DNA of 64,000 nucleotides from Nitrosopumilus sp. (GCA_965204345.1 OZ241981.1:830639-894638), one strand, 5' to 3'. Positions 11,807 to 49,831 are shown, counted from the stretch's first letter. Translations and numbers: made by a program. Notes: generated by a model from the letters alone, not told the origin.

Positions 11807-11874
11807 CATTGTACTTTTACGTTAAATTGATATACAGATAGAATAAAGTTTTCATCAAAGTCCGCAATTTTAGA

Positions 11875-13563
11875 GTGAAAGAAAAAATGAAAGAAAAAAT
11901 CAAATGGAAAACCCTTCAACACAATGGAATCCTATTCCCTCCTGCATACGAGGCTCAGGGGATTAAGATAAAGATCAAAGGGGAGACTGTAAATCTCGAT
12001 CTGGCACAAGAGGAAATGGTGTATCAATGGGCAAAAAAGAAGGATACACCATATGCACAAGACAGGGTTTTTCAGAAAAACTTTACAGCAGATTTTGCTA
12101 AAACATTAGACTCAAAATTTAAAAAAATATCATATGAGGATATTGATTTCTCAAATGCATACAAAGTAGTTGACAGGGAAAAAGATCGCAAGGAAATGAT
12201 GAGTAAGGAAGAGAGAAAAGTCCTTGCAGTAAAGAGAAAAGAGATACGTGAGAAACTAAAAGAAAAATACGGAATTGCCAAAATGGATGGCAAAGAAGTT
12301 GAGGTTGGAAATTACATGGCAGAGCCTCCAGGAATATTCATCGGCAGGGGAGAGCATCCGCTTAGAGGCAAATGGAAGCCACGTGTAACTGCAAAAGATG
12401 TTACGCTGAACATGGACAAAAACGCAAAGAAAACAATGGAAGGAAAATGGGGCAAAATTGTTCACGATAAAAATTCAACGTGGTTGGCCAGTTGGATGGA
12501 TTTTCTAACACAAAAAAGAAAATATGTTTGGCTTGCAGATACTGCAGGATTAAAGCAGGATAAGGACAAAGAAAAATATGAAAAGGCAGTAAGGCTTGGA
12601 AATGAAATCAGAAAGATAAAAGATAGAATTGTCAAAGACATGAAAAATTCAGATCCTAAAAAGAGCAAGATTGCTACAGTCTGTTATTTGATTTATAGAA
12701 CGGCAATGAGAGTGGGAGACGAAAAAGATCCAGACGAGGCAGACACAGTAGGCGCTACAACTTTAAGAAAAGAACACATCAAAATTACTTCAAACACCAT
12801 AGAATTTGATTTCCTAGGTAAAGATAGCGTCAGATGGCAAGAAACAGTAGTTGCAGAAGGCCACGACAAACAATTTCATGAAAACCTCAAAAAAATTGTA
12901 GAAAAGAAAAAACCCAAGGATGAAATTTTTGATGGAATCACATCCAGAAACGTCAATGCGTATTATTCCAACATTGTGAAAGGTTTAACAGCAAAAACAT
13001 TCAGAACATACCTTGCAACAAACGTAGTCAAAAAATATCTTGTAGAACATGATAAGATAAAAGAAAAAACTGCAACTGAAAAACTATACCATGCAAAACT
13101 GGCAAACCTGGAAGCTGCCATAATGTGTAATCATAAAAGAACTATACCCAAGACATTTGAGCAGTCATTACAAAAGAAAAGAGATACTCTGAAAAAGGTA
13201 GGTAAAGAACAGGCCTGGAAGAAAACTAAAGAGGTGCTCAAAAAAGTGGAAGCAAAGGAACCCAAAACAGACATCCAAAGGAAAAGTAAAACAAAAAGGA
13301 TCAAGACACTAAATGAAAGAATCAAAAAACAGAAAATAAGACACAAAGAAAGATTAGAAAAACTAGGATTACAGATTGATTTATCAGAAAAAACTAGGGA
13401 TTACAATATTGGAACATCTTTGAGAAATTACATAGATCCTCGTGTTTTCAAGGCATGGACTGACGAGGTAGGTGCAGAATGGGAAAAATTGTATACATCG
13501 GCGCTACAAAAAAAGTTCCTTTGGGTAAAAAATGAAAAGACCCCTTGGAAGGACATAAAATAA
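11875..13563 (+). CDS. top1: DNA topoisomerase IB (eukaryote-like); true start may be the ATG at 11887
   Basis: KWKTLQHNG, GRGEHP, MRVGDEK, FDFLGKD, KTFRTY, CNHKR, catalytic NYIDPR. Confidence 0.95.
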   Translation: MKEKMKEKIKWKTLQHNGILFPPAYEAQGIKIKIKGETVNLDLAQEEMVYQWAKKKDTPYAQDRVFQKNFTADFAKTLDSKFKKISYEDIDFSNAYKVVDREKDRKEMMSKEERKVLAVKRKEIREKLKEKYGIAKMDGKEVEVGNYMAEPPGIFIGRGEHPLRGKWKPRVTAKDVTLNMDKNAKKTMEGKWGKIVHDKNSTWLASWMDFLTQKRKYVWLADTAGLKQDKDKEKYEKAVRLGNEIRKIKDRIVKDMKNSDPKKSKIATVCYLIYRTAMRVGDEKDPDEADTVGATTLRKEHIKITSNTIEFDFLGKDSVRWQETVVAEGHDKQFHENLKKIVEKKKPKDEIFDGITSRNVNAYYSNIVKGLTAKTFRTYLATNVVKKYLVEHDKIKEKTATEKLYHAKLANLEAAIMCNHKRTIPKTFEQSLQKKRDTLKKVGKEQAWKKTKEVLKKVEAKEPKTDIQRKSKTKRIKTLNERIKKQKIRHKERLEKLGLQIDLSEKTRDYNIGTSLRNYIDPRVFKAWTDEVGAEWEKLYTSALQKKFLWVKNEKTPWKDIK

Positions 13564-46294: not shown

Positions 46295-47443
46295 TTGGAA
46301 TTTCCAGATGATACCCTTCAAGAAATAACTGAAGGTAAAACAAAACTACTCGTTCCAAAAAAATCAATTACGGATAAGGCTCCTCCCATGAAACCAGCAT
46401 TTTTTAATCCAAAAGCAAAACTCAATAGGGATTTTTCCATTATTGCATATTCTGCTTTTCTTAACAAATTTCAGGGACCAAAAATTTTCTTAGACGGCCT
46501 TTCAGGAATAGGAGCTAGGGGACTACGGGTTGCAAATGAGTTAGATATTGAAAAGATTGTGATTAACGATCTAAATCCTTCAGCACTCAAAATGGCAGAA
46601 TATTCTTCAAATCTTAATGCCATAAAAAATATAGAATTTTCAGAAAAGGAAGCATGCAGGTTTTTTAGTAATTATTCAAGAAAAGGAGAAAGAGGTTCGA
46701 TTGTAGACATTGATCCTTTTGGCTCACCTGCGGCATTTTTTGACTGTGGGATTAGGGCAACCATGCATGGAGGCATATTATCAACTGCAGCCACAGATCT
46801 TCAGGTTTTAAATGGATTGTTTCAGTCTGCATGTAAAAGAAAGTATGGCGGAATTCCAATTAGAACAGAATATGGCAATGAGATTGCAATTAGATTGATT
46901 TTGGGATCTCTTAGAACAGTGGCAGCAAGACTCGGGGTAACAGTAATTCCCATATTTGTTGAAAGTGAAATGCATTACTATAGAACATACGTCAAAATTC
47001 TCAACAGGCCAGATCAGCAAGAAAACCTAGGATATATTTTACATTGTAAAAGCTGTGGTCATAGAAAAATTTCTCTTAAAGAACGCCAGGAATGTGAGCT
47101 ATGCAAATCAGAAATTAGCATAGCTGGTCCTTTATGGATTGGGAACATTTTTGACAAGGAATTTGTTGAGGATATGCTAAATGAAAACTCCAAACTGGAA
47201 ACAGACAAAATTTGTGAAAAAACATTACTCAAATGTATAGAAGAGGCAAACATGGACGGGATTTATTTTACAGTAGACGAGATTGCATCTTTAATGAAAT
47301 CATCCCCGCCGAAACTAGAAAAAGTAATCACAAGTTTACGGGAAAATAATTTTTTAGCTAGCGTCACTGTATTTGATTCAACGGGATTTAAGACTAATGC
47401 AAACATTAAGGAAATAATTAAAATTTTTAAGACTATCCAGTAA
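46295..47443 (+). CDS. trm1: tRNA (guanine-26-N2)-dimethyltransferase
   Basis: FFNP..NRD, LSGIGARGLR, NDLNP, DIDPFGSP, GPLWIG. Confidence 0.93.
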   Translation: MEFPDDTLQEITEGKTKLLVPKKSITDKAPPMKPAFFNPKAKLNRDFSIIAYSAFLNKFQGPKIFLDGLSGIGARGLRVANELDIEKIVINDLNPSALKMAEYSSNLNAIKNIEFSEKEACRFFSNYSRKGERGSIVDIDPFGSPAAFFDCGIRATMHGGILSTAATDLQVLNGLFQSACKRKYGGIPIRTEYGNEIAIRLILGSLRTVAARLGVTVIPIFVESEMHYYRTYVKILNRPDQQENLGYILHCKSCGHRKISLKERQECELCKSEISIAGPLWIGNIFDKEFVEDMLNENSKLETDKICEKTLLKCIEEANMDGIYFTVDEIASLMKSSPPKLEKVITSLRENNFLASVTVFDSTGFKTNANIKEIIKIFKTIQ

Positions 47444-48026
47444 AGCCTAAACAAACAAGATACAATTCGCTGCTTTGTTTTCTACTAGCAACAGGTTTTG
47501 TAAGATTGGTTCTGGCAAATTTTTTCTTGATATAATCTCTGAATTCCATCGAGAATTCACCGTCAAAAACTTTGAAGACTGCATTGCCTTTGTGAGCTAA
47601 AACTTTGGACATGATTTTTGTGCAACTATAATTCAGGGAAATTTGTCTAGCATGATCAATAGACCAATTTCCACTAACCTGAGGAGAGAGATCGCAGATT
47701 ACAGCATTGACTTTACGCCCAAAGTAAGACATAACTTCATCAACGACATGCTCATCTTCAATATCTTCTCGGATTATATGAGCTCCAGGGATTTCTTCAA
47801 CGTAGGACAGGTCAATCCCCATTACCTTTCCTTGGTTTCCAACCAACTTCATAGCCATTTGAGTCCAACCTCCTGGTGCACATCCAAGATCTAGTACATT
47901 AAAACCAGGACCAATCAGGCGATAAGACCGGTTTAATTCTTGTAGTTTGAATGCAGCCCTGCTTCTAAAACCCTGCTCATGGGCTAATCTGCGATAGTGA
48001 TCTTTGCGTGCATCTGCTAGTTTCAT
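47433..48026 (-). CDS. rlmE: 23S rRNA (uridine-2'-O)-methyltransferase RlmE/FtsJ
   Basis: RSRAAFKL, LDLGCAPGGW, ICDLSP, SRKQSSELY. Confidence 0.95.
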   Translation of the reverse strand: MKLADARKDHYRRLAHEQGFRSRAAFKLQELNRSYRLIGPGFNVLDLGCAPGGWTQMAMKLVGNQGKVMGIDLSYVEEIPGAHIIREDIEDEHVVDEVMSYFGRKVNAVICDLSPQVSGNWSIDHARQISLNYSCTKIMSKVLAHKGNAVFKVFDGEFSMEFRDYIKKKFARTNLTKPVASRKQSSELYLVCLGFTG

Positions 48027-49324
48027 TTAGCCTTCACGGGTTTCTTTAATTCAGCAATTACCCAATCTTCAATGAATTGGCAATTTCTAGGACTAATCTC
48101 ACCGTCAAGTGAACATTTCTGTTCTACAGGACAAACTAAACATGGTGCATTTTCAATTGACTGTGTACTAATTGGAGTTTTCTTTAAAATTAATTTGTAT
48201 GTCCAACGATTATTTTCAAGGAGTTTTTCTCTAGTAATTGTACCCATTCTTTCAAGTTTCAGTGCTAAACGAGAACCAATCTGATTTGTAAGCTTGAGCT
48301 TTTTCCAGAGTTCGCCTTGGAACATTCCATCAGACTCTTTTTCAGCTAAAATATCAGAAACTTTGTTTGTTAACCTTTCCATGTCAACCTTTTCAATTTG
48401 GAAATTTTCAATTTCTTCATCAGTAAGCTGTTCTTCTAATTCTTCTTCGAGGGTTAATTCTTCTATTCTTTTAGCTTCTTCTAATTCTTTTTTGGTTAAT
48501 TTCTTTACTTTAGCAGGTTTTGCCTCAACTACTTTTGCAGGTTTTTTGGCAAGTTTCTTTGCAGGTTTTGCCTCAGCTACTTTTGCAGGTTTTTTGGCAG
48601 GTTTCTTTGCAGGTTTTGCCTCAACTACTTTTGCAGGTTTTTTGGCAGGTTTCTTTGCAGGTTTTGTCTCAACTACTTTTGTAGGTTTTTTGGCAGGTTT
48701 CTTTGCAGGTTTTGTCTCAACTACTTTTGTAGGTTTTTTGGCAGGTTTCTTTGCAGGTTTTGCCTCATCTTTCTTTGTAGCAGATGAATCTGGCATTTCC
48801 TTTTTCTTTTTTAATTTGGCAGGTTTTGTCTCAACTACTTTTGTAGGTTTTTTGGCAGGTTTCTTTGCAGGTTTTGCCTCAGCTACTTTTGCAGCAGATG
48901 AATCTGGCATTTCCTTTTTCTTTTTTAATTTGGAAGCTTTCTTTGCAGGTTTTGCCTCAGCTACTTTTGGAGCAGATGAATCTGGCATTTCCTTTTTCTT
49001 TTTTAATTTGGAAGCTTTCTTTGCAGGTTTTGCCTCAGCTACTTTTGCAGGTTTTGCCTCAGCTACTTTTGCAGGTTTTGCCTCAGCTACTTTTGCAGGT
49101 TTTGCCTCAGCTACTTTTGCAGGTTTTGCCTCAGCTACTTTTGCAGCAGATGAATCTAGCATTTCCTTTTTCTTTTTTAATTTGGAAGCTTTCTTTGCAG
49201 GTTTTGCCTCAACTACTTTTGTAGCAGATGAATCTAGCATTTCCTTTTTCTTTTTTAATTTGGCAATATCTGCCTTTATTTTTTCTGCTTCTTCAATTAG
49301 AGTATCTTTTTTCTTTGCCATCAA
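48023..49324 (-). CDS. RPC34-like / TFE-beta protein with long histone-H1-like Lys/Ala/Pro repeat N-terminus
   Basis: C-terminal wHTH (MFQGELWKKLKL..LALKLERMGTITR) and Fe-S motif PCLVCPVEQKC..ISPRNC. Confidence 0.82.
   Translation of the reverse strand: MMAKKKDTLIEEAEKIKADIAKLKKKKEMLDSSATKVVEAKPAKKASKLKKKKEMLDSSAAKVAEAKPAKVAEAKPAKVAEAKPAKVAEAKPAKVAEAKPAKKASKLKKKKEMPDSSAPKVAEAKPAKKASKLKKKKEMPDSSAAKVAEAKPAKKPAKKPTKVVETKPAKLKKKKEMPDSSATKKDEAKPAKKPAKKPTKVVETKPAKKPAKKPTKVVETKPAKKPAKKPAKVVEAKPAKKPAKKPAKVAEAKPAKKLAKKPAKVVEAKPAKVKKLTKKELEEAKRIEELTLEEELEEQLTDEEIENFQIEKVDMERLTNKVSDILAEKESDGMFQGELWKKLKLTNQIGSRLALKLERMGTITREKLLENNRWTYKLILKKTPISTQSIENAPCLVCPVEQKCSLDGEISPRNCQFIEDWVIAELKKPVKAK
48520..49260 (-). 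repeat. Nested tandem repeats (24-, 48-, 78-bp units)
   Basis: Five exact 24-bp copies at 49021-49140 (PAKVAEAK); repeated PAKKPAKKPTKVVETK and LKKKKEMPDSS blocks; outer boundaries approximate. Confidence 0.93.
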
Positions 49325-49375
49325 ATCACCTTCTTTTTTAATTTAATTTCTTGTTTATCAATCAATATTTCATTC

Positions 49376-49831
49376 CTATCTAACAATAAAAGTTCCTTGT
49401 TCAGAGATAGTATTTAGTTCTACTGAAACCAATTCTGTGACTATATCATACGATCCAGAGGAATCAACAATCTTGGAGAATTTATCTCCAATAGGAAGAA
49501 GGTTATTCTCATTTTCAATGCATTGCTCAAAAAATCTGCCCTGAGTAACTGCATCACTTTTTCCAGAAGGATAGATGGTGACATAAAGATCACCACAATC
49601 AAATGAAGAGTCATTAACTCTTACTTGAATTTCAATAGGTTCTGAAACAGAGTATTGCTTAGATAATCCAATGATTTCAATAGAAGATTTATGTGAATTT
49701 TCAAAAGACATGGGCCACAAATTTAATTCTCGATCATATTCTTGAAGCACATTGGCCAAGACCGCAGATCCAAATACAATAGAGAAAATTACAGGAAAGA
49801 CAAACACTGCAAAAACTCTCTTACGCCCCAT
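49376..49831 (-). CDS. Membrane-anchored/secreted hypothetical protein
   Basis: N-terminal hydrophobic helix, beta-rich domain with two Cys. Confidence 0.7.
   Translation of the reverse strand: MGRKRVFAVFVFPVIFSIVFGSAVLANVLQEYDRELNLWPMSFENSHKSSIEIIGLSKQYSVSEPIEIQVRVNDSSFDCGDLYVTIYPSGKSDAVTQGRFFEQCIENENNLLPIGDKFSKIVDSSGSYDIVTELVSVELNTISEQGTFIVR

Follow-up and report, generated by a model that had tools for sequence, protein, structure and literature searches.

The closest described relatives of the gene considered here are the archaeal RPC34 proteins. The orthologue of C. symbiosum was identified as an archaeal RPC34 with a Pfam similarity that was, as for the relatives compared here, marginal and sub-threshold (Blombach 2009, PMC2770514), and work in Saccharolobus later showed the family to be TFE-beta, which partners TFE-alpha (Sso0944; Blombach et al. 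2015, PMC4495717). The [4Fe-4S] cluster, the dimer with TFE-alpha and the stimulation of open-complex formation have been shown only for Saccharolobus (PMC4495717). Crenarchaeal TFE-beta proteins and those of other Nitrososphaeria families measure ~125-185 amino acids (aa) and carry no basic arm. In a window of 64,000 nucleotides (the whole stretch of DNA that was analysed) from Nitrosopumilus sp. (GCA_965204345.1 OZ241981.1:830639-894638), we have identified on the minus strand a TFE-beta/RPC34 orthologue of 432 aa followed by a TGA stop (48023..49321). It shares with the described archaeal proteins (Sso0944, PMC4495717; thaumarchaeal RPC34, PMC2770514) a winged helix followed by a four-Cys iron-sulphur (Fe-S) domain, and the status of a single-copy basal factor in a genome where TFE-alpha is present, yet it has in addition an N-terminal helix, a Lys-rich repeat arm of 243 aa and an acidic block. 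Our analysis shows a protein composed of a TFE-beta/RPC34-type core and a translated, disordered, polycationic repeat arm, the disorder being a prediction.

The arm occupies residues 30-272 (48506..49234, minus strand, as are all features of the gene given below) and was delimited by its Lys/Ala/Pro-rich tandem repeats, its composition and its coil state in the AlphaFold2 (AF2) model. It contains 33.7% Lys, 22.2% Ala, 12.3% Pro and 10% Asp plus Glu, with a net charge of +57. Tandem Repeats Finder resolved a 24-bp unit repeated 5.3 times at 100% identity (AKVAEAKP; 49020..49146), a 48-bp unit repeated 5.4 times at 96% identity (AKKPAKKP[A/T]KV[A/V]E[A/T]KP; 48508..48767), 78-bp units repeated 2.6 times at 96% and 1.9 times at 97%, and a 114-bp unit repeated 2.1 times at 94%. 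The 78-bp units (48851..49263) copy the end of the N-terminal helix (LKKKKEM[L/P]DSSA..), a motif found in five copies in all, and an analogous re-copying of a longer portion of that helix is seen in a close relative (L059, the same locus as L068). All the periods are multiples of 3, and the repeats are far beyond chance. Motif counts gave PAKVAEAK five times, PAKK 14 times, EELTLEEELEEQ once, LKKKKEMPDSS three times (five when L/P is allowed) and PAKKPAKKPTKVVETK three times (five with A/T variants). Thus the repeat motifs listed in a preliminary description of this locus, as well as its winged helix and four-Cys motif at the C-terminus, were all recovered by motif counts, Tandem Repeats Finder, profile and model; the arm itself also stood, at ~243 aa and not at the ~270 aa proposed, and the exact 24-bp copies support its suggestion of recent, ongoing growth.

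On either side of the arm lie conserved segments. The amphipathic N-terminal helix (residues 3-36; 49214..49315) is modelled by AF2 with a local confidence (predicted local distance difference test, pLDDT) of ~85, and its consensus of ~30 residues, MAKKKDxLxEEAxKIKAxLxxLKKKK, is conserved through most genera of the Nitrosopumilaceae. The acidic helical block (residues 273-312, KKLTKKELEE..TLEEELEEQLTDEEIENFQIEKV; 48386..48505) is near-invariant across the family, with the consensus TLEEELEEQLTxEEIENFQIEK. Between the two, the full-length AF2 model places residues 37-276 in coil with a pLDDT of 41-53, so that the repeat arm is predicted to be disordered, and then acidic helices at 277-305, a winged helix at 314-379 and the Cys-rich end.

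The core comprises a winged-helix domain (residues 313-380; 48182..48385), supported by profile, AF2 and Foldseek matches, and a C-terminal CX2CX5CX10C..W domain (48026..48181) with the Fe-S cluster motif of RPC6/TFE-beta. When the last 153 residues were compared with PDB sequences by phmmer, the Cys-rich stretch aligned to residues 279-314 of RPC6 of human RNA polymerase III (Pol III), and a profile built from 37 homologues matched RPC6 at E 7e-12 over two stretches, WH2 (the second winged helix, 7a6h_P 88-156) and the Fe-S domain (277-314); the same profile matched the RPC39 winged helix 2dk5 at E 6.8e-5, ranked above MarR proteins. The four Cys (C394, C397, C403 and C414) and W420 are invariant in these 37 homologues and also in a set of 55. 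The AF2 model of residues 262-432 (pLDDT 84) folds into three short acidic helices, a winged helix of helix-helix-helix-strand-strand order and, at the C-terminus, a domain rich in Cys. A Foldseek search of the PDB with this model placed RPC6 chains of Pol III structures in the first four ranks, with template modelling (TM) scores of ~0.33 that are low because the relative orientation of the domains differs. Human RPC6 (7a6h chain P), which is thus the best profile and fold match, shares a WH2-like domain and an identical CX2CX5CX10C..W spacing, whereas it carries three winged helices and an insert before its Fe-S domain and lacks a Lys-rich repeat arm. Together with the published assignment of the C. 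symbiosum orthologue (PMC2770514), the phmmer, profile and Foldseek matches bear out the homology proposed in the preliminary description, and we consider the assignment as a TFE-beta/RPC34 orthologue sound. By likeness to Saccharolobus, the Nitrosopumilus protein would bind a [4Fe-4S] cluster, dimerise with TFE-alpha and stimulate open-complex formation. A genome search returned one match for the TFE-beta gene, and TFE-alpha is encoded elsewhere in the genome (TFIIE_alpha domain at G000:C1:1100415-1100699, 58.5 bits). NCBIfam gave no match for the protein, and a Pfam match of the whole protein to a Plasmodium HRP family was discarded as spurious, a product of low complexity.

Whether the arm reaches the protein depends on the start codon. 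The gene is a single open frame within 48023-49324; the listed start is a TTG, and the next codon is an ATG (49321), which is the likely start and yields the 432-aa product. A Shine-Dalgarno-like GGTGAT (49325..49330) lies 3 nt 5' of this ATG and is identical in seven Nitrosopumilus orthologues. The 50-nt intergenic region 5' of the ATG is A/T-rich, with a TATA-like run that is too near the ATG for a confident assignment of the transcription start. Every orthologue examined reads from the N-terminal segment through the repeats into the core in one frame, irrespective of the unit repeated and its copy number; moreover, in 47 of the 53 full-length orthologues from Nitrosopumilus, Met1 is the only Met ahead of the invariant NFQIE block, and the acidic block, being near-invariant across the family, must therefore be translated. 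The kept frame, the conserved N-terminal helix and GGTGAT, the translated acidic block and the scarcity of Met make a start downstream of the repeats very unlikely, and several lines of sequence evidence, the repeat periods in multiples of 3 among them, thus argue that the arm is translated from the upstream start, as the preliminary description had supposed. Codon counts over the N-terminal helix (203 synonymous versus 416 non-synonymous) indicate mild constraint only and were not used as evidence. A plus-strand open reading frame (ORF) at 48294..49346 ('FAGFASATF..') was rejected as an antisense mirror artefact of the arm repeats.

The arm is not peculiar to this gene, as had been implied, and is instead a family-wide trait that already appears in one sentence published in 2009 (PMC2770514). 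Searching with the core recovered one orthologue in 116 of 121 Nitrosopumilaceae genomes (93 of the 95 of high quality), with open frames of 145-1025 aa, which agrees with the length variability anticipated for the arm; three unpublished genomes (G077, G092 and G093, with frames of 215, 191 and 187 aa) are counted in these tallies only. In all 60 orthologues that we read by direct inspection, a basic low-complexity stretch occupies the arm position, and none of the 26 genera with a match lacks the arm. The repeat units themselves are unrelated between genera, e.g. KKTTKKAEAKPA, EKPTKEKKKT, KEAAPKEKKPAK, ARAEKKAAAEK, KQPEKKKPEKAKQPVKP and TKKSTTKKS, besides a 21-aa unit repeated seven times, a charged helical type such as KEETERKAKR, and ~60 copies of GGKKAAPAP(S/A)PAP in one open frame of ~1000 aa. 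Lys makes up 0.17-0.39 of the N-terminal part, and nearly every orthologue examined has a positive net charge, apart from a short one (L008, -4) and one truncated by a contig edge (L003, ~+1); the rows for L025, L039 and L053 in the charge table were mis-parsed. The shortest arms, of ~40 Lys-rich residues, occur in streamlined genomes of 0.8-0.9 Mb (L049, L050), and the arm stays basic even where a GC-rich genome gives no preference to AAA/AAG codons (L031, L032, L036). We read this pattern, in which basic, Lys-rich character is kept while the units differ by genus, as suggesting that the composition of the arm is selected and its sequence is not.

Across the class, a TFE-beta-like domain was found in 149 of 151 sampled genomes. 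In the 69 genomes from 11 other families the frames span 125-186 aa, with short, non-basic N-termini. Two longer frames outside the family (G140, 588 aa; G168, 385 aa) were dismissed as chance frames in GC-rich DNA, where Gly/Arg-rich junk, and not an arm, precedes a normal short TFE-beta. The arm is a trait of the Nitrosopumilaceae and not of the 'Thaumarchaeota' as a whole, which refines the 2009 statement on low complexity, made at a time when the family counted only two available genomes (PMC2770514).

Some relatives depart from the usual layout in other ways. In one family of the class (f5; e.g. G122, G126, G129 and G132), the profile matches the Fe-S part only (model positions ~65-126), in open frames of 71-98 aa that often occur twice per genome, and these may be split or strongly divergent TFE-beta genes. 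In three short relatives from outside the family (P0028, P0038, P0040), the C-terminus ends in a short basic tail, e.g. ..KKKQVRKTKLTTKHTPKNKLKRTKRN, which may be an independent gain at the opposite end of the protein. Three others (P0113, P0116, P0148; 310-395 aa) place several winged helices before a TFE-beta-like winged helix and Cys domain, in an RPC34-like multi-winged-helix architecture.

Within Nitrosopumilus, 80 loci gave 58 parsed ORFs, five of which were mis-parsed at 119 aa, leaving 53 reliable full-length orthologues of 204-509 aa with an overall median of ~248 aa. The 432 aa encoded in the window are among the longest; the other long alleles, of 509, 470, 430 and 380 aa, all lie on complete chromosomes that presumably derive from long reads. 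The repeats frequently interrupt short-read assembly, and a contig end falls inside the gene in 22 of the 80 loci, so that lengths published from short-read assemblies probably underestimate the arm. Proteins whose core is 97-99% identical to that of the window measure 240-306 aa and differ mainly by three to ten AKKTTKKAEAKP-type copies, which shows that copy number changes over very short evolutionary times. New units of 8, 16 and 26 residues set the arm in the window apart from theirs and mark it as a large elaboration of recent date. A weak correlation links open-frame length and genome size (Spearman 0.44, n=59), a value that ignores phylogeny and is descriptive only.

The explanation that we favour, with a probability of roughly 0.62, is that a TFE-beta core has gained a lineage-specific arm whose likeliest role would be to bind nucleic acid near the promoter electrostatically and without sequence specificity. 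The winged helix and Fe-S core, as in Saccharolobus TFE-alpha/beta, would pair with TFE-alpha and aid the opening of promoter DNA, and in the Nitrosopumilaceae it is preceded by a lineage-specific module of amphipathic helix, polycationic disordered arm and acidic helical block. Short tandem repeats are gained, lost and exchanged in frame, probably through replication slippage or unequal recombination, so that length and sequence of the arm drift fast while its basic, Lys-rich composition is kept. Nonspecific binding by the arm could then enrich TFE locally on DNA or make the pre-initiation complex more stable, possibly moderated by the adjacent acidic block. This reasoning draws on the position of TFE-beta/RPC34 winged helices at promoter DNA (PMC4495717) and on the analogy with Lys-rich PAKKA-type tails, such as those of M. 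smegmatis Ku and Hlp (PMC3553676) and of AlgP (PMC9239181), and with the C-terminal domain of histone H1; the repeats of Ku make contact with DNA and favour end-joining (PMC3553676). Several observations weigh against it. The 432-aa protein has no match to Pfam PF05158 (RNA_pol_Rpc34) at E<=1, and its relatives score 19.9-27.0 bits, below the cut-off of 28.4, over model positions 291-331 only, even though this is a weak test because the model rests on full-length eukaryotic proteins. The exact repeat number is that of the assembly, acidic residues recur regularly within the arm (10% Asp plus Glu), which lowers its charge density below that of the C-terminal domain (CTD) of histone H1, and arm length varies ~20-fold among viable lineages, as that of a loosely constrained linker would.

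This last observation leads to a rival explanation in which the arm is a tolerated, largely neutral and slippage-prone entropic spacer between the N-terminal helix and the core, and its basic composition merely reflects harmless repeats in an AT-rich, Lys-codon-rich genome, with no selection for nucleic-acid binding. Besides the length range, it would account for units that are unrelated between genera, for copy numbers that differ among 99%-identical cores, for Lys-rich repeats on other ORFs of the same genome and for the weak correlation of frame length with genome size (rho 0.44, n=59), as if streamlining trimmed dispensable sequence. However, a dispensable spacer is hard to reconcile with an arm kept in all 26 genera, 0.8-Mb genomes included, with its basic character in nearly all orthologues, those of the GC-rich genomes among them, or with the lack of comparable expansions at the same position in Nitrososphaeraceae and other relatives; we hold the neutral spacer to be unlikely, and promoter-proximal binding by the arm remains our preference. 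A rival of another kind concerns the core and sees in the gene a gene-specific regulator of MarR type and not a general factor. The only plausible Pfam match is indeed to MarR, at 20.9 bits, and databases name the relatives 'MarR family transcriptional regulator'; yet this score falls under the cut-off of 24.6, the best profile and fold matches and the Fe-S motif are those of RPC6, the gene, present as a single copy, is found in almost all genomes of the class and keeps its synteny with FtsJ, and the core model lacks MarR dimerisation helices and follows the order acidic helical block, winged helix, Cys-rich domain. We rejected this explanation as extremely improbable, and the public-database label 'MarR family regulator' on these genes is accordingly a mislabel.

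The likeness to histone H1 raises the question of a role beyond promoters. The H1 CTD, AlgP, mycobacterial Hlp/HupB and M. smegmatis Ku (PMC3553676, PMC9239181) likewise carry Lys/Ala/Pro-rich PAKK-type repeats on a DNA-binding protein, with copy numbers that differ between relatives, whereas the TFE-beta arm is N-terminal, regularly interspersed with Glu/Asp and placed on a basal transcription factor, so that the likeness is compositional only. Pfam Linker_histone gave no match at E<=1, and the winged helix matches RPC6/MarR-type domains instead; since the linker-histone globular domain is absent, the resemblance is an analogy and not homology, and of the 'histone-H1-like' label given in the preliminary description only the composition stands. 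The literal reading as a linker histone is weakened further by the scant histone reported for N. maritimus, which makes up <0.06% of the proteome (PMC7613761); the source genome has one histone gene. A nucleoid-associated or condensate-forming TFE-beta, compacting DNA in the manner of H1, AlgP or HupB or scaffolding polyphosphate or RNA, would nevertheless fit the H1-CTD-like composition (K 34%, A 22%, P 12%, 14 PAKK, net +57), the predicted disorder, the block-polyampholyte layout of a polycationic arm beside an acidic block, and the room that very low histone in N. maritimus (PMC7613761) leaves for other DNA-coating proteins. It is nonetheless quite improbable, given that a basal factor is normally far scarcer than a nucleoid protein, that many genera have arms as short as ~40 aa and that dedicated small Lys-rich repeat proteins of the same genome are better candidates for bulk DNA coating. 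Perhaps, in the Nitrosopumilaceae, evolution has converted a basal initiation factor into an adjustable polycationic protein that coats DNA or RNA or forms condensates, with slippage-driven changes in arm length giving fast evolutionary control over how promoters open globally or how the nucleoid is organised. We regard this as improbable; if it were true, the arm would make up in part for how very little these mesophiles invest in histone, and its length would follow genome size or lifestyle, being longest in large, possibly host-associated genomes.

Among eukaryotic factors, TFIIE-beta/Tfa2 also has a Lys-rich region besides its winged helices, as TFE-beta has here. That region differs in being short, C-terminal, non-repetitive and conserved in sequence.

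The gene lies within a conserved neighbourhood. Directly downstream, an FtsJ/RlmE-like methyltransferase (47433..48026, minus strand) begins with an ATG that overlaps the TGA of TFE-beta (ATGA, 48023-48026). This pairing, seen also at loci L051, L053 and L055-L058, is kept throughout the Nitrosopumilaceae and extends to other families of the class, and the conserved overlapping pair suggests a conserved operon of a basal transcription factor and an rRNA methyltransferase. Upstream, a 151-aa ORF (49376-49831, minus strand) with a hydrophobic N-terminal segment adjoins TFE-beta throughout the family and has no Pfam match.

A crude six-frame scan of the genome returned ~10 Lys-rich repeat ORFs besides TFE-beta. 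Three of them, outside the window, encode proteins of 121-173 aa that consist almost wholly of (A)APKRKAA(A)KRK repeats (G000:C1:361657-362019, C1:518059-518439 and C5:6670-7188), and these stand-alone polycationic proteins could, judging from their composition, coat the nucleoid. A 127-aa protein with a basic half of KTSKSKAKTAKSKAKTKK repeats and an acidic tail is encoded twice (G000:C1:246716-247096 and C6:27138-27518), a coiled-coil protein ends in seven copies of AAKKKAAPKTRPAKKK (C1:1785193-1786155), and a DHH-family protein has a Lys-rich N-terminus of ~60 aa (C1:647392-648543). Within the window, a 573-aa open frame at 11842-13560 on the plus strand (G000:C1:842480-844198) resembles a eukaryote-type topoisomerase IB, an identity read by eye from the sequence, and has a Lys-rich stretch near its C-terminus. 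Charged low-complexity repeats on nucleic-acid proteins look like a recurrent feature of this lineage.

What was known already is the TFE-beta/RPC34 assignment for the family and the existence of a low-complexity region at the N-terminus of thaumarchaeal RPC34, the latter from a one-sentence mention (Blombach 2009, PMC2770514). Beyond that sentence, the open-access literature that we searched characterises the thaumarchaeal arm nowhere, and it holds no description of the Lys-rich tandem repeats, of the N-terminal helix and acidic block, of the restriction to Nitrosopumilaceae or of the extreme turnover of length and units, which extends to near-identical strains. On a practical level, the array could be usable as a strain-typing marker. 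A family-wide disordered arm of ~40 to 880 residues, in rapid flux while its composition is kept, is unusual for an essential and otherwise compact basal factor, and in ammonia-oxidising archaea that abound worldwide it amounts to a ready-made set of shortened and lengthened variants in which to study what polycationic tails contribute to transcription initiation.

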